A stretch of 28,888 nucleotides of DNA from positions 1 to 28,888 of the IMG/VR virus record IMGVR_UViG_3300037493_001368; one strand, 5' to 3'. The DNA comes from a virus. Taxonomy: Duplodnaviria; Caudoviricetes. Position numbers and translations under genes: made by a program. Shown piece by piece: positions 15,609 to 28,886 of this stretch (positions are counted from its first letter, which is position 1; every line of letters begins with the position of its first letter). The notes below the pieces were generated by a model. That model had not been told where the DNA came from. It was given only the letters and a program-made list of their open reading frames with translations, and made no database searches.

Positions 15609-15664
15609 GCGATTCCCCGTCGCTTAGTACCCCCTCAGACCCCGCTTCGGCGGGGTTTTCTTTT
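15609..15664 (+). ncRNA. candidate C-rich small RNA (about 56 nt)
   Basis: 5' hairpin GCGA-TTCCCCG-TCGC, single-stranded TAGTACCCCCTC, terminator hairpin; no ORF. Confidence 0.4.
15637..15664 (+). terminator. Rho-independent terminator with a C(UUCG)G loop
   Basis: AGACCCCGC-TTCG-GCGGGGTTT followed by TCTTTT at the convergence of the two gene blocks. Confidence 0.9.
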
Positions 15665-18600
15665 ATGAACCAAAGTTTTCTACTAAGTACGGTCTCATTT
15701 TTGGATTTAAACGAACGCCATCTACCGTATCTTTAAGCGCATTCTCACGTGCAGTGTACGATTTATTGATAGTATCTTGTGAAATTTTAATTCCAGGTTC
15801 AGGGTGGATTGAGTTGAAGTTAGCTATTTTTTCATTTATATCCATCATGCCATCTGTATCACCGGTAGTACGCGCAAGGTATAAGTTATCTAGTAACGCG
15901 CCTCTTCTTTCTCCGATATATTTTTCAGCCTGCTTCATAGACCCAGCACGAGCATACGCTTCGCTAAGAGTAGCGGGGGTAAACCCAAGTATTTGCATCG
16001 CTAGGTTATATGCATTGATATCCTCTACGATTGGAGCCCCTTTAGAATTTAGCGCTCCCTCAGTTGCATACCGAATACCCTTCATACCGTTACGAATAAA
16101 GGATGGCATTACCGCTTCAATGGCTCGTTCGTTGTGGCCTTTTTGTAGCTCGTCAAGTGCACGAGATGGGTTTGTAACTAAGGCGGAATAAGCTGGGCCC
16201 ATCATGTGTTCGATAGCGTAGATAAGTGGACCAACATCTGCCAAACGTTTTTTATCGTCACGCCACAACATACCATTGAAACCAGTACGAGAAGCGATGT
16301 CTATGTTGAGCAACTGATTGAGCGGGCCTTTGTAACCTAAATCGCCAATGGCAGTACGCACAGATTCATCTGCATCAAATGGTTCGTCGTCATCACCCAA
16401 AGCTGCATTTAACGTAGAGGCTACTAAAGTAGCGCCGCCATATAGAGGCATACCTTGAACACCAGCGAATAAGTAGGCCATACCAAAGATACCGGTAAGT
16501 TGTTTACGTGCAACGTCCCTAACTTCTTTAGATTCACCTGCGTATGCTTGTTGAGCTAAGCGACCTACTAAATAAATCTGTGCTTGAGCAAAGCGTTTGA
16601 AGGTAAACATAACTTTACCCCAGCCTTGTTGGAAGAACCTAGGACCTGCATCAGTTAGCGCATGGCTATGTGCAGATGTGTTTACACGGATAGCTTCTTC
16701 GATTGCTTCTTCTTTAGACATGCCTGATTTTCTAGCTAGGTCAAAGGTGGCAATTAAGGTTACTTCACGGTTAAAGCGCTCTGAGTTTTGGAACAAGAAC
16801 CCAAGTCCATGCTCAACCTTAGAACGAATGCCGGTATAGTCTTCAGTGCTTACCTTACGCATTTCAGTCATTTCATAGCCAACGCCACGACGTATAGCAG
16901 AACGGTCTACGGCTACTTTATATAAGTCTGCGTATTCCCCTTTGGCATTAGTACCAAATGTGCGGTCAGGCATAAACTCAGAGTTGTTATCTAAGCCACC
17001 AGCAAAGTACATCTTAGTAGCTCTAGACATTGCACTAGCGGCTTCACCAAACCCATACTTACCCCCTAGTAAGCTGTAAACAACGATGGGCAACTGAGTT
17101 AAGTTGATAACCGCAGAAGAAACGTTACCTGTAATGTAAGATAGGTAGCTGAAATAAGAAAGCCTAGATGCCCAAGGTGCCGCAGTTGGGTTGCTTAGGA
17201 ACTGTTCTTGAGATGCAATGTTGTCGTATATGTCGCGGTTAGCCATTGAAGGGTTAGCTTCGTATACTGTCTTGACGCCTTTAATAGCATTACCAATCTC
17301 AGGTGCATACTCCATGTTAGCAAGTTGATGTGCCATACGACTACCAACTGCTGCGAAGCCCTGAACTACATCTGATGTATACCCTTTATAACCTTCACGG
17401 GTTTGGAACTGTTGCTTCAAGGATTCAGCTGGGAACAAGTCTAGGTAAGACCTATAGATGTCGTTAATTACTTCATCGTTTACTTTAGCTTTTTGCAAGT
17501 CTGAAATAACACCTGCCATAAATCCGGTAGGTGGTGCAGAGCGATGGGTAATTTGCGCTATCTGGGTATACTTTTGAATGTTAGTGCCGCCGGCTTTTGC
17601 AATAGCATCTGCAATCGCATCTAATTCTCTTTGGGACTCTCTTGCAAATACTACGCGTTCTCCATTAGTATCGGTAAAGGAAATCCAGTAATCACCGGAA
17701 CGTAGCAATGGTAGGTAGAATGGAATACGGCCAGCTTCAAACTTAGCCTTCATCTTCTCTACTAAAGTCAAATACTCCCTGTTGTTTTGCTGAGGAATTT
17801 GATTGATTAGTAAATCTAAGTACTTATCACCGTATGCTTTGTATTGGTCAGCAAGTTCGATTGCGTAGTTTTGCAATGGTAGAGGTAAGTTTTTAAACTG
17901 TTTAACCAATGCATTATCCGCGTCTTTTGCATCTCTTGGGTCAAGTTTAAGACGAGATATATCTAGAATAAGCGTATTAAATTGTTTTACTTGTGCAGGT
18001 GTCATTGCCTTGATTAGCTTAGACCCTTTATTCACAATCCTAGAAACTTGCTCACGATACTCAATACTACGAGCGCCACGGTATTCAACCGCTGTCAAAA
18101 GATTTTTTAGTGTAGGGAAAGTTTTGCCAAAAACTTCGACTAGGTTAGGTAGGCTCATAAACCCTAAAGCGCCCTTCCTGAGCGAGTCTGGTACGGTTGA
18201 TACCGCATTTAAGGCACCTTCTATTACCGCTGGTTTTGGTTCGGGTAAATTATCTAGTACGGTATCTGCAATCCCAATCTCACTTGAAGCTTCTTGGGCT
18301 TTTTGTTTAACGTTAGCAGTCTTTCTAGTTTTTTCCCGTTCTTTAGACTTCTCTCTGTATATACGAGCAATATCTTTTTTGTTTACTCTGCGGAATGCAG
18401 CTTCACCTAAGTCTTTACGAAGGGCAGCTACTGTTTCACCAAGAGAACGTGCACCATCACGGATAAGTACTTCAATCATTTGGGTGATTGCTTTTAGTAT
18501 ATCAGGTGGAGTTTCGCCCGGAACGATATTAAGTTTGTGTTCAAACATGGCGGATAAGGCAGCGCCTAGATTAGCAGCAGCTTGCTCTCTGGTTAGTTCT

Positions 18601-21600
18601 TCACGAGTAGCAGCCATTTTAGGGGTTTTTGTATCGGGAGTACTTGCGGCAGTACCTTGTACAGTTTTAGTTATATACTTAGTTTCAGAGCTTGCGAAGT
18701 CCTCTGTTGGGAAGAACTCTTGAATTGATTTTGACTCTGGTATTACAACTATAGGAAAGCTTTTTACCCCTTTAGGGATAACCTTAAACACCACGTTTTG
18801 CATAAACTCGTTAGGTACATTGATACAACCAAATGAGATGCGGTTATCTTCAGGAGTAGCGGATTCTAAACGTGCTTGACGTTGCTCAGCTGGTGCACCT
18901 AAATAGGTTGGGTGCATAGCGATAGAGTAGTTGTCAAATATTTGCAGGGTAATAACATTACCGTAATGAGGAACATTTTTTACACTTGCATCAAACATCC
19001 CGGCTTCAGTAACTTTATCTTTTTCTGCTATTGACTCTACGTTCGCCGTCTTTTTAGCTGCTTCGGACCTAACATCCCCTTTAGTTTTACCAGTAAGAGA
19101 TGCAGATTTACCAGCTAGTACGCCGTTTGCATCAATCACATAGGTCAACCCCATTTGTTTATCTACGATAGCAATAGGTTTATTCGGGTTAGCCCTCATG
19201 CGGTTATCAGCGACTTGTTGGATATAGCCTGGAACAGCTACGTTTTTAAAGTCTACCTTTGGACGCTCAACTGTTTGTTTTATTGTGTAGGTTGTGACCG
19301 GTATATTTACAGTATGGATTTGCGTATTTGCAGGATTGAGGTTCACCAACATCGCCACGGACAACATGCCGTGTTTAACAGATAGCCATACTTTATTAAA
19401 TAGGTCAGCTAATTTATGCTGCGCGTTCTTTGCACCTGCGAATACCCAATCTGTAAATTCTTCGGTAAACTTATCTAGGGCAACATTAGAATCCGTAGTA
19501 CCGTAGTGTTCGTTAACCCTAGATAGTTCTTCTGGAGTAAGTTCCGCCTCTACTGCAGCATGCACTGCTTCGGTCATATCTGTAGAGTTATTTACTTCGG
19601 CCTGAGTTACTTTCTTAGCTTTAGCTTTGGGTTTCTTAGCCGCTTTTGGTGCGGGTGCTGCCTCGGGCTCTTTAGTTTCTAGAGTAGCTACATGTTCTTT
19701 AAGCGCCTGTAATCTTGCTGGGGACGGCACTTTGACAGCTTCCCAAACTAGTTTTCCTAGTTTAGTTTTTGGAGTTGCATTTAAATCACCAGCATCACGG
19801 GCAATAAAGTAATGAGATTCTGATAGGTCATCTTCTAATTTTCTACGTCTAGCGGTATCTTCACGTCTAGGTTTACGTAGGTTATTTATTTTTTGCTCTA
19901 GGGGCATCAACTCTTTGTAGATTTCTTCAACTGAAGTTAGATGCCTATTTAATTTATTTAAATCTGGTTCTGTAATATTTTCGTCGGCGGCTACCTGTTC
20001 GGCCGTGTAGTCTTCAATAGGCTCTTGAAGAGTTTTTACTACAGGTGCTTTTACAGGCACTTCTTCAGCTACGGCTTCTTCTATCGGTGCTTCTTCAACT
20101 ACAGCTTCAGGTTCTTTGCGATTAACTTCACTTGCATAGAAGTCGGCTTCTTCTTGGGTTAATTGGTTTTTGCCGTGTAGAGATATTACTTCTTCTTGCA
20201 AGTATTTAGGCATGTCTTCAAAAGCTATGCCGGTGTCAAAGTTATCCCAGGTCTCTTCAATAGGCTCTGCCTGTAGTGCTTCTTTTGCTTGAAGTGTGTC
20301 TAATGGGGCTTCGTTCGTAGCTTTTTCGGCTACAACTGGGGCTTGTTCTTTTACTGTTGCAGGAGGCAACGCGGCTTTAAAGTTTGTTACGCTTTCCTGT
20401 AACTTAGGGCTCAACCTAGATTGGGATAAGTAGATATCAAGACCCGCATGTAGTCTATCAACATCTTCCTGCTTAGTAATATCTAAGTTATTCAACGCGC
20501 CTTCTTTGCGCAATATGGCTGAATGGCCAATACCTAAGTCTTTCCAAGTTTGGTCGGATGTAACTGTAGTAGGCTCTGTACGTGCAGCCTCTATTTGTTT
20601 TGCTTTTACTTTAGGGCCGAAGTCAGAAGCTTGTGCTATCAGTTGTTGTAACGGTGCAGATGGAGACAAGCCGCTTTCTTTCATGCGAACGTTCTGCATG
20701 ATGTCAAATTGTTTAGGTGCTAGCTCTTCTAATGCTTGCTTTTGGTCTACTTTAGCTTGCGCTTCTGCTTGTTTTTGTTGTTGTGCGGCAGTCTTCACAG
20801 ATGCAAGGGCTTCAGGAGTTGGTTTACCTGTTGCACCGAATAGGGCTTCTTGTTCTACGGGGGTTAATTCTGCTTGTGCAGTTTCTTCCGTAGGCATAGC
20901 AGGGCCAACTTCCCCTTGAGTAAATCCTGCAACCGGTTCCATACCCGGTAAGTCCATAGGTAGGTTTGCTTGTGACCGTTGGGCTGCTTGTGCAGCTGCT
21001 TGCTCTTGAGCTTGTTGTGCTTGAGTTACCATGTCAGCTTGACGCTGACGTTCTGCCATTGCTTCGTCTATTTGTTGTTGTCTAACAGCTTCTTCTTGAG
21101 CGGCACGTTGTTGCTCTATTGCTTTTTCTTGGGCATTTTTTGCAGCACCTTGGATAGCACCAAACGGAGTACCCGCAATAGCACCACGCACACCACTTTC
21201 AACAATGCGGTTAAAGTCTTTATCAGTCCACATATCGCGGTTTTCATTTACGAAACCTTCTGCAGCAATGTTAAGTGCCTCTTGCGCACTTTCAGTTAGA
21301 CCTTCTGTACCTACACTTGTAAAAGCTGCCTTAGTAATGTTTTTAGCTAAGCCCGGACGCATACCAGATTGCTCTAGAATTTTACCGGTAATAGCGGCTT
21401 TACCTGCTGGGGATAGAGAGCTTAATAGTTTTGCTGGAAGAACAGAATCTAGCGCAGCGCTAACTGACCCAAATAGTATGGATGCACCGGGAGCTAGTTG
21501 ACCGGAATCTTGATAGATACTTTGAAATACTTCAGGGGTGTTCATTGCAAATGAACCGAGGTATACACCAACCCCTTGACCTTTAGCCTGCTGCCTTGCA

Positions 21601-22154
21601 GCGTTCTCTGCACCGACACGACCAGCAACGTGAGCTAATTCTTCAGCGGAGGCACCTGTCTCTACAAGGCCCGGAGTTATACCCGCTAATTCTTTTTCTG
21701 CTAGTTTAGCAGCACCACGTTTAGCAACTGCACCGCCTATACCGCCTGGTACGAGCATGCTAGCCATATCAGGGGTTACTTCACCCAATGTTTCTAGTGC
21801 GTATCTAGCAGCGTCGCCCAGACCACTTACTTCTTTATAGGATTCAAACTGTGCGGGGTTTTCTCGAGCTAGCTGTTCTTCCGTAGCTTGGGCTTCTGCC
21901 ATTTGAGCTTTGGCATAGTCATCAAACCCTAATGCACTTGCACCTAGGGCAGGAAGGATATCCCCAAAGGTTTCACCCATACGAGTTGCCCCGCGAGATA
22001 CGCCTTTGGTAAATGACCCCATTAATCCATAATCAGGACCAGGAAGTTTAAAGTCATGTTTTTCTGATAATTGGCGTACTTGGGCTAGAAATTGCTCTTG
22101 TGTTAGGTCGTCTCTAAATTTGACTGGGCCTAACTTTGGTAAATTAACAATCAT
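15663..22154 (-). CDS. large internal virion/DNA ejection (polyvalent) protein with an L,D-transpeptidase-like domain and a PLxRFG-like region
   Basis: 2163 aa; last gene of the virion block; Gly/Ala-rich hydrophobic N-terminus; AMH...ISFGCINV motif; YLPLLRSGDYW motif. Confidence 0.8.
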   Translation of the reverse strand: MIVNLPKLGPVKFRDDLTQEQFLAQVRQLSEKHDFKLPGPDYGLMGSFTKGVSRGATRMGETFGDILPALGASALGFDDYAKAQMAEAQATEEQLARENPAQFESYKEVSGLGDAARYALETLGEVTPDMASMLVPGGIGGAVAKRGAAKLAEKELAGITPGLVETGASAEELAHVAGRVGAENAARQQAKGQGVGVYLGSFAMNTPEVFQSIYQDSGQLAPGASILFGSVSAALDSVLPAKLLSSLSPAGKAAITGKILEQSGMRPGLAKNITKAAFTSVGTEGLTESAQEALNIAAEGFVNENRDMWTDKDFNRIVESGVRGAIAGTPFGAIQGAAKNAQEKAIEQQRAAQEEAVRQQQIDEAMAERQRQADMVTQAQQAQEQAAAQAAQRSQANLPMDLPGMEPVAGFTQGEVGPAMPTEETAQAELTPVEQEALFGATGKPTPEALASVKTAAQQQKQAEAQAKVDQKQALEELAPKQFDIMQNVRMKESGLSPSAPLQQLIAQASDFGPKVKAKQIEAARTEPTTVTSDQTWKDLGIGHSAILRKEGALNNLDITKQEDVDRLHAGLDIYLSQSRLSPKLQESVTNFKAALPPATVKEQAPVVAEKATNEAPLDTLQAKEALQAEPIEETWDNFDTGIAFEDMPKYLQEEVISLHGKNQLTQEEADFYASEVNRKEPEAVVEEAPIEEAVAEEVPVKAPVVKTLQEPIEDYTAEQVAADENITEPDLNKLNRHLTSVEEIYKELMPLEQKINNLRKPRREDTARRRKLEDDLSESHYFIARDAGDLNATPKTKLGKLVWEAVKVPSPARLQALKEHVATLETKEPEAAPAPKAAKKPKAKAKKVTQAEVNNSTDMTEAVHAAVEAELTPEELSRVNEHYGTTDSNVALDKFTEEFTDWVFAGAKNAQHKLADLFNKVWLSVKHGMLSVAMLVNLNPANTQIHTVNIPVTTYTIKQTVERPKVDFKNVAVPGYIQQVADNRMRANPNKPIAIVDKQMGLTYVIDANGVLAGKSASLTGKTKGDVRSEAAKKTANVESIAEKDKVTEAGMFDASVKNVPHYGNVITLQIFDNYSIAMHPTYLGAPAEQRQARLESATPEDNRISFGCINVPNEFMQNVVFKVIPKGVKSFPIVVIPESKSIQEFFPTEDFASSETKYITKTVQGTAASTPDTKTPKMAATREELTREQAAANLGAALSAMFEHKLNIVPGETPPDILKAITQMIEVLIRDGARSLGETVAALRKDLGEAAFRRVNKKDIARIYREKSKEREKTRKTANVKQKAQEASSEIGIADTVLDNLPEPKPAVIEGALNAVSTVPDSLRKGALGFMSLPNLVEVFGKTFPTLKNLLTAVEYRGARSIEYREQVSRIVNKGSKLIKAMTPAQVKQFNTLILDISRLKLDPRDAKDADNALVKQFKNLPLPLQNYAIELADQYKAYGDKYLDLLINQIPQQNNREYLTLVEKMKAKFEAGRIPFYLPLLRSGDYWISFTDTNGERVVFARESQRELDAIADAIAKAGGTNIQKYTQIAQITHRSAPPTGFMAGVISDLQKAKVNDEVINDIYRSYLDLFPAESLKQQFQTREGYKGYTSDVVQGFAAVGSRMAHQLANMEYAPEIGNAIKGVKTVYEANPSMANRDIYDNIASQEQFLSNPTAAPWASRLSYFSYLSYITGNVSSAVINLTQLPIVVYSLLGGKYGFGEAASAMSRATKMYFAGGLDNNSEFMPDRTFGTNAKGEYADLYKVAVDRSAIRRGVGYEMTEMRKVSTEDYTGIRSKVEHGLGFLFQNSERFNREVTLIATFDLARKSGMSKEEAIEEAIRVNTSAHSHALTDAGPRFFQQGWGKVMFTFKRFAQAQIYLVGRLAQQAYAGESKEVRDVARKQLTGIFGMAYLFAGVQGMPLYGGATLVASTLNAALGDDDEPFDADESVRTAIGDLGYKGPLNQLLNIDIASRTGFNGMLWRDDKKRLADVGPLIYAIEHMMGPAYSALVTNPSRALDELQKGHNERAIEAVMPSFIRNGMKGIRYATEGALNSKGAPIVEDINAYNLAMQILGFTPATLSEAYARAGSMKQAEKYIGERRGALLDNLYLARTTGDTDGMMDINEKIANFNSIHPEPGIKISQDTINKSYTARENALKDTVDGVRLNPKMRPYLVENFGS
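18735..19230 (-). other. YkuD-type L,D-transpeptidase catalytic domain within the 2163-aa protein
   Basis: IAIVDK..GLTYV, TG, TEAGMF, IAMH (His1081), SFGCINV (Cys1110), IVVIPE occur in the canonical YkuD order. Boundaries are approximate. Confidence 0.8.
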
Positions 22155-22171
22155 AACAATTCCTTAAACGT

Positions 22172-23770
22172 TTAGTCCGCAGCTCCATACGTTCCGCCAC
22201 CAAGAGATTCTGCAGTTCTAACCCCTTCATCAGCCTCTAGAACTTGGCCTAATGCATTAGCAATGTACCCTTCTCGTAAGAGTTTTAACTCGCCTTTAAA
22301 CAATTCATTTCCAACGTCGTTATTATACTTCTTTTTAAGCGCAAGATATGCGTCCGTGTAAGCAGGGTCTGATTGCATATTCTTCATGACTGATTGTTTA
22401 GTCGCAATTAACTTAGCTGCTGTCGCTGCATCCGCAGATTTCATTCGTTTTTCGTACATAGCAATTGTTTGTGAATGTTGTGCGGCTGCTTGGTCTAGTT
22501 TTTTCAAATCTAATTGGGCTGCAACTTTAGCTTTCTTAGCATCATACATGCCGGTAGCATTTCTAACTTCAAGGTCAGTTTTATACCCAATCTTAGCAAG
22601 TTCTGCAGCATTATTTTGTGCTTCTCTGTGTTCTTTACTGCGTATGCCATAATCAGCAGCGGCTACTTTTTCAGCACGGTCAGCTTGTGCTTGACGAGTA
22701 GATAAATCAAATTGTTTTTCACGTGCAGCTTCGACTTTATCTTTAGCTGCTGAAAGCCCTTGTAGTGCATTAATACCTGATTTACTAATAGCTTCGCCTT
22801 CTTGGCCTTTTCTAGCACCAGCAATACCTAACCCAAATTGAGCTAATGCCATCCACGGTGCAGCTTCTTCTGCTTTACCTGTTTTTTCTTCCATGGCTTT
22901 TAGTCTTGCATCGTTTGCGGCTCTGTTAGGGTCTATACCAATTAATCCTGCACGCTCGTCGATTAACGCTTGAGGAGATTTTACCTCTTGTTTTAACTTT
23001 TCATAGGCAGAGCTATTGTCTGTTATGTTAGTCCAATCCAAATCCCCTAGTTTAGAAGAGAATGAAGATGACTTGTTAACTGGGGCAGCTGCATCAGCAG
23101 CAGCTTGTACGTTATCTTTAACCATTGGAGGTTGTGCGGATAATGGTTTAGCTTGTGCGGGTGCTACTGGAGCTAATGTTCCAGATTGACTTAAGGATTG
23201 CAATTCTGATAGAGACATTTTAGGTAGTCTTTCAGATATAGCTTGTGCCTGTTCACGTTCTACGTCAGATTGCTCCATGAACAACCCACCTAATCCAGCT
23301 TTAGGGCCGTATTTAGATTGAAGGTCAGCACGTAGTTTTTCAGCAAGTAGGTATTCGTCCCCAACAGCTTGTCTTCCTTCCCACCAACGACCCACTGGAG
23401 ATGCTGCTTTTACTTCGCCTTGAGTTGCATATCCAGGAACATCGCCACCATCATCAAATGCAATTATGCCGCCGCCCGCGTAAGAACCACCATCGAACAT
23501 GCCTTCGGCTACTGGAAGAGATGCGATACCGGGGTCTACTTGAGCTGCTTTTTGTTCTATTACCGTTTGAGTTGGAGCCTGCACTGGAGCACTTGGGGCT
23601 GGACTTTGCGGCATATCTTTAATCATCGCTGCCGCTAGTTTTTGCTCTGGAGTACCAGTCAATAGGTATGCATTAACGTGCTGCGCCCTAACATCTGCAG
23701 GGATAGCGAGCATGGATTCAAATATAGTATTTAAGTCCGGTTTTGTGATTGGGCGCATGTTCTGTTGCAT
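22172..23770 (-). CDS. putative internal virion/ejection protein
   Basis: 532 aa, Ala-rich helical; GIASLP and YAGGGIIAFDDGG motifs; lies between other internal proteins. Confidence 0.65.
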   Translation of the reverse strand: MQQNMRPITKPDLNTIFESMLAIPADVRAQHVNAYLLTGTPEQKLAAAMIKDMPQSPAPSAPVQAPTQTVIEQKAAQVDPGIASLPVAEGMFDGGSYAGGGIIAFDDGGDVPGYATQGEVKAASPVGRWWEGRQAVGDEYLLAEKLRADLQSKYGPKAGLGGLFMEQSDVEREQAQAISERLPKMSLSELQSLSQSGTLAPVAPAQAKPLSAQPPMVKDNVQAAADAAAPVNKSSSFSSKLGDLDWTNITDNSSAYEKLKQEVKSPQALIDERAGLIGIDPNRAANDARLKAMEEKTGKAEEAAPWMALAQFGLGIAGARKGQEGEAISKSGINALQGLSAAKDKVEAAREKQFDLSTRQAQADRAEKVAAADYGIRSKEHREAQNNAAELAKIGYKTDLEVRNATGMYDAKKAKVAAQLDLKKLDQAAAQHSQTIAMYEKRMKSADAATAAKLIATKQSVMKNMQSDPAYTDAYLALKKKYNNDVGNELFKGELKLLREGYIANALGQVLEADEGVRTAESLGGGTYGAAD

Positions 23771-23779
23771 ATCTTATCC

Positions 23780-24907
23780 TTATTTTAATGCGTTAGCTAA
23801 GCCTAAGCCCGCTAAACCTAAACCGCCAATCTGTGCACCAATACTTTGAGGTGCTTGATAAGATTGAGTAGTAGATGCCAATTGTACAGGTAATCCACGG
23901 AGAATGTTACTGTAGAAGCCAAGTTGTTCTTGTGGGTAGTCACGTTGACGTAAGAAGTCTTGGTATGCAGTATCAAGTTGTGTTTGTTGTAATGCTTGTT
24001 GTTGTGCAGCTGAACCTTGTTGTGCGCCTAGACGAGCTATGTCAGATGCTTGTTGTGTAGAACCTAATGCGCCTAGACCCGTTGCTGCCTGTTGAATACC
24101 GCTTAAACCTGTACCAAATAGTTGTTGTCCTAGACCTGCAGCATATTGTTGGCCTTGTTGGTTTTGCTGGTTAGCTTGTAAGCCCGCTGCCTGGTTAGCT
24201 GTTTGAGCTTGCATTTGGCGTGCTTGGTCAGCTTGAAACTGTTGTTGTGCATTTAGATAGCCTTGTTGACTACCTTGCATTTGAATGTCACCTAGTTGTT
24301 GGTTTAGACCACGGTTTTGCTCAGCCTGTAATAGTGCGTTCCTAGCCCCACCAAATGTACCACGGCCAATCGCACCACTCATTAATGCATTTTTATCTAG
24401 GGCGCCTTTTTGTTGTGCTTCACGTAAGGCAATGTTAGTTACGTTTTGTTGGTACGGGCTTGAATAGTAATCAGCAGCGCCTTGACCAAATTGTTGAGTC
24501 CCTACTTGTTGTGCATTATAGTTGGTAGGTTGATATGCTAGAGCCTGATTTAAGCCCGCACCAGCACCAGCCATGCTCATCCCACCAGCTACATTAAGAC
24601 CTTGAGTTGCTTGACCAAACTGACCTGGTGTGCTCAAGTTAGAATAGTTTTGTTGAATGCCTTGTTGTTCAGGAGTAAACCCCGCTACACGAGCAGCCCC
24701 GTATGGTTGGTACCCTTGGTATGATTGTGCTTGTGTACGGTTTAATAAGTTCTCAAAGTACGGACGTGCATATTCAGGCAAGTTAGTTTGCGTAACCGTT
24801 TGGTTTGTAGGTGCTGGTGCACCGCCGCCTTTACCGTATAACTTAACGCTTTTACCAACTTTCTGGAATGCCTCTTCAGGCAACATCTCTAGGTGATTAT
24901 ATCTCAT
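23780..24907 (-). CDS. putative DNA ejection/pilot protein
   Basis: 375 aa, Gln/Gly/Ala-rich; LPEYARPY, GTFGGAR, YQDFLRQRDYP motifs; hydrophobic Gly-zipper C-terminus. Confidence 0.65.
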   Translation of the reverse strand: MRYNHLEMLPEEAFQKVGKSVKLYGKGGGAPAPTNQTVTQTNLPEYARPYFENLLNRTQAQSYQGYQPYGAARVAGFTPEQQGIQQNYSNLSTPGQFGQATQGLNVAGGMSMAGAGAGLNQALAYQPTNYNAQQVGTQQFGQGAADYYSSPYQQNVTNIALREAQQKGALDKNALMSGAIGRGTFGGARNALLQAEQNRGLNQQLGDIQMQGSQQGYLNAQQQFQADQARQMQAQTANQAAGLQANQQNQQGQQYAAGLGQQLFGTGLSGIQQAATGLGALGSTQQASDIARLGAQQGSAAQQQALQQTQLDTAYQDFLRQRDYPQEQLGFYSNILRGLPVQLASTTQSYQAPQSIGAQIGGLGLAGLGLANALK

Positions 24908-24909
24908 AC

Positions 24910-25329
24910 TTATTTCTCCGCTGGCAATTCATAAAACATGAACCGCGACTTAAACCCATCATTTTGAAAGACCTTACCCCAACCTTCACGTCCATAGGAC
25001 TCGATAACTGCACAATCATTATCTTTTGCGAATCGTTGAAGTACTTTCAACATATCCGGTTTCCATTTAGCTAACTCAACTCCACCTGTAAAGTGCATAA
25101 CTAATGCTTTCATTCTAGGGTAAGTTATAACTTCAGTAACTACCGCTCCCAAAACATTGTCGTCATCTTCAAAGGCTATCCACAACTGCTGTGGTTTTGT
25201 TTCTATCCCTACTTTAATATCTTCTACTGTAAATCTACCATACGTGTACTTAGCGGCTCCGTCTAGATAAGCCCTTACTTGAGGCCATACTACTTCTAAG
25301 TATTCTAAAGGTACAAAAGATACTTGCAT
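24910..25329 (-). CDS. GNAT-like acyltransferase-fold protein of the virion module
   Basis: QLWIAF, GAVVTEVITYP, FTGG, RFAKDNDCAVIESYGREGW pattern. Confidence 0.65.
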   Translation of the reverse strand: MQVSFVPLEYLEVVWPQVRAYLDGAAKYTYGRFTVEDIKVGIETKPQQLWIAFEDDDNVLGAVVTEVITYPRMKALVMHFTGGVELAKWKPDMLKVLQRFAKDNDCAVIESYGREGWGKVFQNDGFKSRFMFYELPAEK

Positions 25330-25332
25330 TTC

Positions 25333-27384
25333 CTAGGCGGTCATGTATTTATTAGGGTTAATTTTCTTACCTTGTTTCTTAGAGCCTGTACGTTCTTTAC
25401 GAACTTTATCCATCATTGCATAGAACTTCTTAGCACCGCCACTGCGTTTAACTTGCTCTGGTGGGATGTACGCTTCGCCATCTGCAACGCGAGCTGGCTG
25501 TCTACCGTTAATAGTAGTTTTAATTGAGTCTGACATGCCATCACCAGCACCACGGATAGGACGAGCATTATGTCGTTTTTGTAAAGCTGCTAGACCTGCA
25601 TCAGTACTACCATTGCCTAAGTGACTAACTACGTCTGCTGGAACTACAAAGCCGCCATCTTTCAACCCGCCGCCAGCCGCTTTCATGGTAGGTTGTTGTG
25701 GGTTAATGTTAGAGAACTGTGCTTGTTCTACTGCACCAGGCATTGTGCCTGTCATTACTGAAGCCGCTGGGTTATAAGTCCGTTGAGCTGCGTTGATGTA
25801 GTCTTGCATAGTTAGTGGCGCGGAAGGGTTAGCATTATGCAGCATTTTCCCAAATATTCTTCCCATACTATTAGCACCACCTTTGCCGCCCATACCACCC
25901 ATACCGTTAGGTTCAACTTGATTGCCAGATGTTCTACCCATTGGGTCTGTAATTGCATTACCTAATAATGAGCTAAGACCATTAGGTGTACTTGCTTGTG
26001 TGCCGTCAGCATTTGGAATTGCTGCTACGGTTGATAGGTCTGTTGGTGCAACGCCATAAGAAGCTACGCCACCCATTGTTGGTATGTACCCACCTGCATC
26101 AAAGCCAACTACTTTTGCATTCTCAGTAGCAGCTGCTGACGCTAGATTGTTTAGTCGACCTAAGCCGTATGGCTCAGCTAGTGTGTTTTGTGCTGCGGTA
26201 CCATCTGGACTACTATATAAGTTTGCAACGCCACCAGTAGTCAACCCACCCTGCGCATAGCCTGGCGCTTTGTTGAAACCTGGGTATGGGTTAGCCTCAT
26301 TAAAATAAGAAAGCTCTGGGGAGCCAGCTGTGCGATTAGCCAATAGTTCTTGTTCTGTAAACGTTCTTGGGCCACGGTCTTGTGCAGAATACGGACCTTC
26401 GTATTTCATTTGGTAACTGGTATCTTCTGGAACGCCTGGCTCGTCTGGTTGAATTGCTAATAATGGAGACGCAACAGTAAGAGCATCCATCCATGGAGAA
26501 TTCTTTATAACATTTCCTGCGGCATCTTGGTATCCAGCTTTAAGGAAGTCAGAGTAATTGCCAACCCCACCAGGCTGCATTAATTTACTTACGCCAGAAC
26601 CAATGTCACCCATTGCACCTGTTTGTGCTACGTTACCTACTGAGTTAATAGCCGTATCAGCTACACCTTGAGTTAGACCACCCATACCTACGGGGGTTGT
26701 AGACATTAAACCTGTACCTGCTGCTTCTCCAACTGATTGACCTACAGTACCAACTAAGTTTTGTGGTATTGATTTTAAACCACCTAGAGTGCCTTCCCCT
26801 ACGTTTCCTATAGAACCAACTAAGTTATCAGGAATAGATTGCATTGCCCCTAGCGTATTACCACCTACTGTACCAACCAAGTTTTGTGGTATTGCCCCTT
26901 GCATTCCGCCTAGTCCGCTTGAAGCTTGAGCTGCAAGATAATCTGGAGCCGCAGTAGTAGCACTTTCTGCAATATTTGGAAGTAGTTTCGTTGTATCTAC
27001 GGCTGCTTCTGTACCAAACGCACTTAGGTTACCGGCTAAATTACTACCACCGTATCCACCAAGACCTGCACCAATGCCAGACATTAAATCACCGGTAGCT
27101 AAGAACCCTAGTGCACCGGTAGTCATACCCGCACCTAAAGCACTCATGCCTAAACCTGCTGGGCCTAAGAACGCGCCTAAAGCAATAGGTGCAACAGCAC
27201 CTAGAATATCACCAAACCAACCTGCTTCTGGTAGGCCTGTTTCAGGATTAATAGTCAAAGTACCACCACCTTGCATCGCAAGGGCTTGAAGACCCGCCAC
27301 TTCCCGCGGTTGCATGTGCACAAGCATTGACTCACCATTACGTCCTAGGCTTGCTACCCCTTGTGCTAATTGATGTCCTGACAT
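25333..27384 (-). CDS. putative internal virion protein
   Basis: 683 aa, Gly/Ala-rich; N-terminal GRNGESMLVHM...TINPETGLPEA; C-terminal FVVPADVVSHLGNGS and GDGMSDSI motifs. Confidence 0.65.
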   Translation of the reverse strand: MSGHQLAQGVASLGRNGESMLVHMQPREVAGLQALAMQGGGTLTINPETGLPEAGWFGDILGAVAPIALGAFLGPAGLGMSALGAGMTTGALGFLATGDLMSGIGAGLGGYGGSNLAGNLSAFGTEAAVDTTKLLPNIAESATTAAPDYLAAQASSGLGGMQGAIPQNLVGTVGGNTLGAMQSIPDNLVGSIGNVGEGTLGGLKSIPQNLVGTVGQSVGEAAGTGLMSTTPVGMGGLTQGVADTAINSVGNVAQTGAMGDIGSGVSKLMQPGGVGNYSDFLKAGYQDAAGNVIKNSPWMDALTVASPLLAIQPDEPGVPEDTSYQMKYEGPYSAQDRGPRTFTEQELLANRTAGSPELSYFNEANPYPGFNKAPGYAQGGLTTGGVANLYSSPDGTAAQNTLAEPYGLGRLNNLASAAATENAKVVGFDAGGYIPTMGGVASYGVAPTDLSTVAAIPNADGTQASTPNGLSSLLGNAITDPMGRTSGNQVEPNGMGGMGGKGGANSMGRIFGKMLHNANPSAPLTMQDYINAAQRTYNPAASVMTGTMPGAVEQAQFSNINPQQPTMKAAGGGLKDGGFVVPADVVSHLGNGSTDAGLAALQKRHNARPIRGAGDGMSDSIKTTINGRQPARVADGEAYIPPEQVKRSGGAKKFYAMMDKVRKERTGSKKQGKKINPNKYMTA
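26740..26915 (-). repeat. three intragenic peptide repeats of about 20 aa
   Basis: LGGMQGAIPQNLVGTVG / LGAMQSIPDNLVGSIG / LGGLKSIPQNLVGTVG; the DNA TACCAAC(T/C)AAGTTTTGTGGTATTG recurs. Confidence 0.8.
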
Positions 27385-27626: not shown

Positions 27627-28886
27627 TTAACCCCTTGTTCCATCTGGACGTGCATCAACTCTAGGCATACCCAACTGCCACTGTGTACCCACATTACTAG
27701 ACTCGATTCTAAAGTTCATTTGACGACCACGAGCCCTGATAAATACTTGGTTTGTATACTGGTTAACCGTAGCGGTGGTGGTGATAATAGGTCTATCAGT
27801 TGCCACACCAGAAGCATTTATGTCTGAACTTGCAGCGCCAGGGAAGTTCCGTACCCCAACAGTAACCGTAGCTTCAGGGGTTATAGGTGCGCCCGTTACA
27901 GGGTTAGTAGTTTCTGAGCTAGTAAAGTTAATGTCTGGAATAACTCGACGAACTAACATGAATTTATCGCCATCTTCAATATCAACGTCAGCCGATTGGA
28001 TAAACGAGTTCATGCCTACAGGTGGTGCGCCTAGTGGTTGCCCATCGTTATTACCTGATTCATGTGTATATATCCAACCATCATGTGCGGCAAGGGGGAA
28101 ACTAAACACACCAGCATCAACCCAAGCGGTTCGATTAATATTGCCATAGTACCAAATGTTGTCTGCGTAGTTATATATAACGTACCTATCAATTTCAATT
28201 GAGTTAGCCGTGCAGTAGAACCATATAATCTCATTAAACTGATTATTAGTACCCGCAAAGAATATCTGCCCTTGTTGGCGGTTAATGTTCTCAAATACAA
28301 ATTGCCTTATAGTGCAAGGTAGCGTATCTACACGACCATTATAGATGTAGAACTTATCATTACCCATCCAATAAATAACGTTGTTAGCCGAAGCAACAGT
28401 ATTACCGCCTATAATTGATACCCCATTAGCAACTTCTTGAACACCAAACACTTCCGCAGTGCCTAAGAATTGCATAGATGATAAAGAGATATCTGTCCAT
28501 ACTAGTGTTTCTTGTTTAGCATGAAATGCTGTGATGATGCTTGTGCCTGATTGCAAGTACAAAAATCCAGCCGTATTAGTTAACTCTGGTTTCCAATTTG
28601 TTGGGTCTGGTCCTGTATCCGGAGATACATTTGCCCAGCGAATTAATAGCTGATTAAGTGAACCTAAGTAATCAGGTGCTGATGCCCCGGCGTCATACTC
28701 AGTACAGCTAAGCGCAATTAAATGCCCTGATGGGGCAAATATTAGTGTGCCTACTTGTTGAGGCACTGCAACTGCTCCGCCTAGTGACGACATTAAAACT
28801 GCGCGGGTATTAAAGTTAGAGTCATACGCCCAATAGTATACGTCTCCATTGGATACGCTAATTATCAAATCGTCATTAAAGTTGTC
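27627..28886 (-). CDS. tail tubular/DNA stabilisation protein (P22 gp10 or T7 gp12-like), 5'-truncated by the window
   Basis: Frame stays open to the window edge (...DNFNDDLIISVSNG); beta-rich; IRWA, YWMG, FNEIIWFY, RTAW, RARGRQ, PDGTRG motifs. Confidence 0.75.
   Translation of the reverse strand, partial: DNFNDDLIISVSNGDVYYWAYDSNFNTRAVLMSSLGGAVAVPQQVGTLIFAPSGHLIALSCTEYDAGASAPDYLGSLNQLLIRWANVSPDTGPDPTNWKPELTNTAGFLYLQSGTSIITAFHAKQETLVWTDISLSSMQFLGTAEVFGVQEVANGVSIIGGNTVASANNVIYWMGNDKFYIYNGRVDTLPCTIRQFVFENINRQQGQIFFAGTNNQFNEIIWFYCTANSIEIDRYVIYNYADNIWYYGNINRTAWVDAGVFSFPLAAHDGWIYTHESGNNDGQPLGAPPVGMNSFIQSADVDIEDGDKFMLVRRVIPDINFTSSETTNPVTGAPITPEATVTVGVRNFPGAASSDINASGVATDRPIITTTATVNQYTNQVFIRARGRQMNFRIESSNVGTQWQLGMPRVDARPDGTRG

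Follow-up and report, generated by a model that had tools for sequence, protein, structure and literature searches.

A predicted YkuD-fold enzyme as optional central cargo of a giant polyvalent-type phage protein

The canonical motif of L,D-transpeptidases (LDTs) is H-G-(S/T)-x10-(S/T)-x-G-C-h-R; anchoring is the commonest specialised role of these enzymes, and those that anchor proteins are known to attach them through a C-terminal Lys or through an N-terminal residue (PMC12729407). The YkuD family also includes hydrolases of L,D-type links (PMC10653827, PMC8938487). Phages can usually do without the wall enzymes of their virions, which nonetheless help in stationary phase (PMC1796659, PMC6116005). 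Among the domains of polyvalent phage proteins, Iyer et al. (2017; PMC5512222) name those of the lysozyme, SpoIID-like and DD-peptidase kinds in their main text, where neither YkuD nor transpeptidase occurs; the supplements, outside our coverage, might list the domain. Here we describe a window of viral DNA, IMG/VR record IMGVR_UViG_3300037493_001368 (28,888 nucleotides, 28.9 kb; CheckV completeness 46%), in which an open reading frame (ORF) on the minus strand (15663..22154) encodes a giant polyvalent-type protein of 2163 amino acids (aa). The middle of this giant contains a predicted enzyme of the YkuD fold.

An earlier sequence-only reading of the window had placed a YkuD catalytic domain at about aa 975-1140 of the giant. 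The peptides that it quoted are present in the protein, and the AlphaFold2 model of the domain (predicted local distance difference test, pLDDT, 88) shows the YkuD β-sandwich and matches YkuD-family structures with the predicted catalytic His and Cys intact, which supports the fold. The limits were drawn too narrowly: the domain spans about aa 966-1152 (18699..19259; minus strand, as for all parts of the giant given below), and the moving unit is larger still. The predicted base, His1081 (CAC, 18912..18914), and the predicted nucleophile, Cys1110 (TGT, 18825..18827), lie at the codons first assigned to them, and Ser1107 follows His1081 by the 25 residues then counted. Cys1110 is the only Cys of the giant, and the model is consistent with its adjacency to His1081 at the level of topology only. 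Both residues, with the [S/T]-x-G-C context of the Cys, are invariant in 121/121 aligned sequences, a set found without motif patterns; they are also kept in 76/76 viral segments, where the search patterns partly fixed the Cys and left the His free. The long insert between them carries Asp-Asn-Arg 1103-1105 (18840..18848), a signature of the subfamily whose D and R are invariant in alignment A1. The whole triplet is found in 35/41 phage cores and 80/80 parsed bacterial cores, numbers partly fixed by the search patterns.

The domain departs from the described YkuD enzymes in several respects. Compared with the LDTs of PF03734 (Ldtfm, 6fj1; LdtMt2; Vibrio cholerae LdtA, 7aj9), it has a His-Cys distance of 29, the D-N-R insert, a residue other than Gly at His+1 and Asn at Cys+2, its local motifs being H-P-T and C-I-N; in the 41 phage cores His+1 is R, A, P, S, Q or K. 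The YkuD hydrolases Csd6 (4xzz), Pgp2 (6xj7), Bd1075 (7o21) and DpaA (8ikr), a group recognised by its aromatic D-Ala pocket, have Ala or Val at Cys+2 and share 15-18% identity with the domain, which is without an NTF2 domain. In addition, it is embedded in a phage structural protein, and this copy gives no Pfam or NCBIfam match, remaining below the PF03734 gathering cut-off of 23.4. That cut-off is passed by 7/22 homologous giants, 29/121 alignment members match the family at E≤0.1, and 249/442 candidate sequences match the domain itself at E≤1e-3. These matches and the alignment agree with the earlier view that the domain resembles a poorly characterised proteobacterial subfamily.

The same stretch of protein occurs in the independent contig L001 (99%) and in P0124, so the domain is not an assembly artefact. 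Between the window and L001, the 196 codons of aa 955-1150 show 27 synonymous and no non-synonymous changes, which makes this the most constrained segment of the gene. Nine other pairs gave omega values of 0.03-0.12 for the domain in eight cases and 0.29 in one near-identical pair, in 9/9 below that of the upstream flank. Model and substitution pattern together show a predicted YkuD-fold Cys/His enzyme under purifying selection. The fastest-changing part of the giant is aa 341-847 (19614-21134), which has no recognised domain (81% identity and omega 0.26 against L001).

The unit that moves between giants comprises about aa 848-1165 (18660..19613). It is shared with P0125, which is 76% identical over aa 848-1196, unrelated in the remainder and continues with ART-PolyVal and LPD38 domains. 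It is absent from the closest scaffolds, L224 and L227, which align only to an N-terminal part (aa 3-323, 21186..22148, 41-42% identity) and a C-terminal part (aa 1294-2162, 15669..18275, 47% identity); L224 has an ART domain in its place. The model of aa 848-1165 (pLDDT 84.7) has four helices followed by the enzyme, with low confidence between them at aa 932-950. The predicted four-helix subdomain (aa 851-936, 19347..19604; model of alignment A3) has block pLDDT values of 72-95 over most of its length. A basic-then-hydrophobic stretch (aa 922-940, 19335..19391; pLDDT below 50 from aa 932) resembles a signal peptide in other members and does so weakly here. A hydrophobic 12-mer scoring at least 1.5 precedes the domain in 57/65 modules, compared with 327/2828 control windows; the window's own copy scores 1.46, just below the threshold.

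Viral scans yielded 65 distinct embedded copies of the module, many of them near-duplicates. Their ORFs, as far as visible, are 1145-5524 aa long, and the copies comprise 41 distinct catalytic cores. The scaffolds that bear it are of PLxRFG or LPD38 type and carry other cargo as well, for instance InPase, RadC, methylase/SNF2 and ART domains. As in polyvalent phage proteins (PMC5512222) and in the PLxRFG (NF032893) and LPD38/LPD39 giants of F116/H66, Pavtok and POI1126, shuffled central cargo lies between conserved ends, the C-terminal scaffold is common and the gene stands in a virion context. Relatives were also sampled blind to the module through a 683-aa neighbour gene, using the best 80 of 466 confirmed matches from the scanned part of the collection. 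No giant was visible at 22 of these loci and a partial giant without the module at 20; among the 38 informative giants, one carried it. The survey of domain swaps at this position that the sequence-only reading had proposed finds other cargo there, such as the ART domain of L224. These comparisons show the module as mobile, optional cargo in the middle of the giant.

No cultured phage was matched by the domain, apart from weak matches in MN047793.1 and MZ326862.1, one of them under no annotated gene; these two phages might serve as a tractable system. Larger phages have stand-alone, signal-peptide-like copies of the enzyme (L007:9923-10594, L009:9887-10420, L069:9938-10483 and L086:9929-10420), which cluster separately in the tree; in L009 a truncated copy is present as well. 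A divergent copy without the hydrophobic stretch is found in L093 (6746-11275) and L096, where its 1500-aa protein is encoded next to crAss-type muzzle and ring genes.

The giant is the final gene of an internal virion/ejection cluster, which we take to be the position of T7 gp16 in gene order. It matches phrog_10089 (E 1.9e-81) and, more weakly, the virion RNA polymerase family phrog_2206 (E 9.4e-5), and its C-terminal 675 aa (aa 1479-2153) are a PLxRFG domain (NF032893, E 1.1e-132; 443.8 bits against a cut-off of 100). These matches favour the earlier view of a giant ejection protein in the gp16 position. Genes matching phrog_3287 and phrog_4287 lie upstream on the same strand, as expected of a podophage ejection protein, 71 cultured phage records match the C-terminus, and the database record of the homologue H66 gp60 bears a mass-spectrometry note. 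Because of this cluster context, the cultured matches and the H66 note, the giant is likely, by homology, to be packaged in the virion and ejected with the DNA.

Upstream on the minus strand are a 532-aa probable ejection protein (22172..23770), so called from its position and without any match in Pfam, PHROG or NCBIfam; a 375-aa DNA ejection protein (23780..24907; phrog_4287, E 5.8e-10); the 683-aa probable internal protein used for sampling (25333..27384); and a tail-tube-like virion structural protein (27627..28868; phrog_3287, E 9.5e-44, profile positions 123-524), which the end of the window probably truncates. The 683-aa protein is Gly-rich and without family match, and its C-terminal domain, the marker for sampling, occurs in an estimated 4100 or so stored viral stretches. 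A 139-aa gene at 24910-25329 gives no significant family match; cultured relatives have an acyl-CoA N-acyltransferase in the same position. At 15617-15660, after the convergent primase and giant genes, a GC-rich inverted repeat and a T run look terminator-like by eye.

The sequence-only reading had recognised no glycan-cleaving domain in the internal proteins, and indeed Pfam reports no glycosidase in those of the window. Its implication that the module replaces such an enzyme is not supported. Pfam, which may miss divergent wall enzymes, found wall hydrolases in 0/22 module-bearing giants and equally in 0/25 complete module-less giants scanned, so near relatives lack the module and, in the giant, a Pfam wall hydrolase alike. 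Moreover, SLT, M23 or tail lysozyme domains are encoded directly upstream in 5/27 module-bearing loci (98 upstream ORFs scanned). Among six cultured giants scanned (Pavtok for its first 4655 aa), four carry wall enzymes, all within aa 58-367: two have SLT, and two have Hydrolase_2 with M15. Sequence comparison speaks against a simple one-for-one replacement of a glycosidase. Like T7 gp16 and other virion-associated lysins, the giant, last and largest of the internal proteins, bears a predicted wall enzyme that probably helps without being required; it differs from them in its predicted Cys-dependent peptide chemistry, in the central position of the enzyme and in the lack of such a replacement.

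The bacterial relatives were studied in 80 genome loci, the best 80 of 601. TpsA-like genes lie within 3.5 kb in 27/80 loci and TpsB-like genes in 20/80. A same-strand ORF ending just upstream of the enzyme carries the C-terminal tag P-x(0-5)-[K/R]-x-x-(R-[N/G/H] or L-H)-stop in 54/80 loci, compared with 14/6302 ORFs elsewhere, the pattern having been defined after inspection of the neighbours' C-termini. The Pro-rich tag ending in R-[N/G/H] is found on unrelated envelope proteins (TpsA, OmpA-type barrels and Lpp-like proteins; for instance L118:6012-9938, L125:8459-9391 and L175:9389-9706). Among 20 tagged proteins scanned, three are outer-membrane barrels above the cut-off, without a match to the OmpA C-terminal domain, six match the Lpp family below the cut-off and two have Alanine_zipper as best match, also below it. 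In 28 aligned tags, one Pro and the penultimate Arg are the only invariant residues, and several tags have no Lys. Many of the 30 bacterial N-termini viewed look, by eye, like signal peptides. In L113, L116, L126 and L153, tandem pairs of stand-alone enzymes follow a small, tagged, secreted-looking protein. This association of genes suggests a wall-anchoring role for the bacterial relatives, which adjoin Lpp-like and β-barrel proteins, the kinds of protein that known LDTs anchor (Escherichia coli LdtA-C with Lpp; β-barrel anchoring in Coxiella and alphaproteobacteria). The acceptors known for those enzymes are Lys or N-terminal residues; in the tag the invariant residue is the penultimate Arg.

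At viral loci the tag occurs in 6/99 cases, and the pattern was not found in the near-identical phage L001. Two module-bearing phages (L076:3311-4081 and L097:3439-4212) have a gene of about 257 aa in the structural cluster whose tail resembles the tag; its product may be a substrate that the phage itself encodes. In a quick unrooted tree (77 of 171 rows after 90% de-duplication, bacterial rows reduced at random to 35), the bacterial copies form one group (SH-aLRT, an approximate likelihood ratio test, 99) and the phage copies fall outside it and are more diverse; the bacterial sample was chosen by similarity. A speculative and rather unlikely extension is that the subfamily consists of sortase-like LDTs that would read the Pro-rich...[K/R]-x-x-R-[N/G/H] tag, remove its last residue like D-Ala and join the protein to diaminopimelate; phages would inject a diverse set of them, within their giants, to undo host tethers of this kind or to fix their own conduit to the wall. 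On this view the bacterial system might even derive from the phage pool, the more diverse of the two in the tree.

The explanation we prefer, tentatively, is that the module is an accessory enzyme, delivered by the virion, that hydrolyses L,D-type links of the host wall. The giant would be packaged and ejected, and the YkuD-fold module would act as the ejection conduit crosses the periplasm. It would most likely attack protein-to-peptidoglycan tethers or, failing that, 3-3 links or the ends of stems. The stem peptide would be held on Cys1110 as an acyl-enzyme until water released it, and the loss of L,D-type links would loosen the envelope locally. Such a module would be no essential drill but an aid where the host, or its state of growth, makes for a wall rich in tethers or cross-links. 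We infer the activity, the packaging, the periplasmic site, the substrate and the preference for hydrolysis over transfer. Several findings weigh against this explanation. Fold scores tie the hydrolase Csd6 (12.2) with the transferase Ldtfm (12.0) and do not separate the classes; the bacterial relatives look like anchoring enzymes, that is, transferases; the same central slot holds cytoplasmic effectors (ART, ParB, InPase, methylase/SNF2) in relatives; the hydrolases of cultured giants are not central; and 37/38 relatives do without the module. The substrate may also differ from that of the bacterial enzymes, because the phage copies lie outside their group.

Close behind comes transpeptidation, possible though somewhat doubtful, in which the ejected enzyme would link peptidoglycan to the conduit or to some other protein of the phage, or would reseal and stiffen the wall at the entry site, protecting the infected cell and hindering superinfection. 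The tagged neighbours of the bacterial relatives and the prevalence of anchoring among specialised LDTs agree with it, the hydrophobic stretch before most modules could hold the enzyme at the inner membrane, and the hydrolases that co-occur with the module would make the hole. However, the tag is rare at viral loci, and Cys+2 is Asn where most transpeptidases have Arg (PMC8938487), a residue that is not diagnostic. Moreover, cytoplasmic domains follow the module in P0125, L004, L047 and L058, so a single membrane anchor with a periplasmic enzyme does not fit those giants when intact. A slot shared with ART, ParB, InPase and methylase cargo speaks for a less likely alternative: the domain would enter with other cargo and act in the cytoplasm on wall precursors or recycling muropeptides, or process the giant itself, as proposed for the peptidase domains of polyvalent proteins (PMC5512222). 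The signal-peptide-like bacterial N-termini and the top structural matches, all of which act on wall peptides, argue against this, and the module cannot be needed for processing because it is missing from most giants.

Release of the enzyme as a separate exported product late in infection, through an internal start or leader-peptidase cleavage, as a lysis aid or for exclusion from inside the cell, appears very unlikely. In one group (L008, L010-L015 and L023-L036) the hydrophobic stretch does resemble a complete signal peptide that ends in A-x-A. However, this site is absent from the window's group, where the predicted bundle ends in a helix formed by the first half of the stretch, and internal starts with a ribosome site were found in 3/64 modules against 192/1920 control windows, no sign of an internal start. 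Least probable of all is that the domain stems from a captured bacterial gene, has lost its activity and persists as a relic that acts as a spacer or binds the wall. The Pro at His+1, a position never occupied by Gly in the phage cores, and the missing Pfam match would fit a relic, but the bacterial relatives share the non-Gly residue there, and the domain is the giant's most conserved segment, with its His and Cys kept throughout the viral segments.

Full-text searches of papers outside subscription found no account of a YkuD/L,D-transpeptidase module in phage virion or polyvalent proteins, nor of a sortase-like tag. To our knowledge, the known wall enzymes of virions are glycosidases and endopeptidases. 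If the explanation preferred here is true, a capsid-delivered Cys enzyme of L,D-transpeptidase fold would be a new chemistry for phage entry, and the YkuD-fold module adds a domain to the repertoire of polyvalent proteins; being small and foldable, it is directly assayable. Independently of the phage module, the bacterial relatives, together with the tagged proteins beside them, suggest that Proteobacteria have an undescribed signal for sorting proteins to the wall, a case that can be tested in its own right; if the sortase-like proposal holds, this signal would belong to a Gram-negative system that sorts adhesins, barrels and Lpp-like proteins to the wall.
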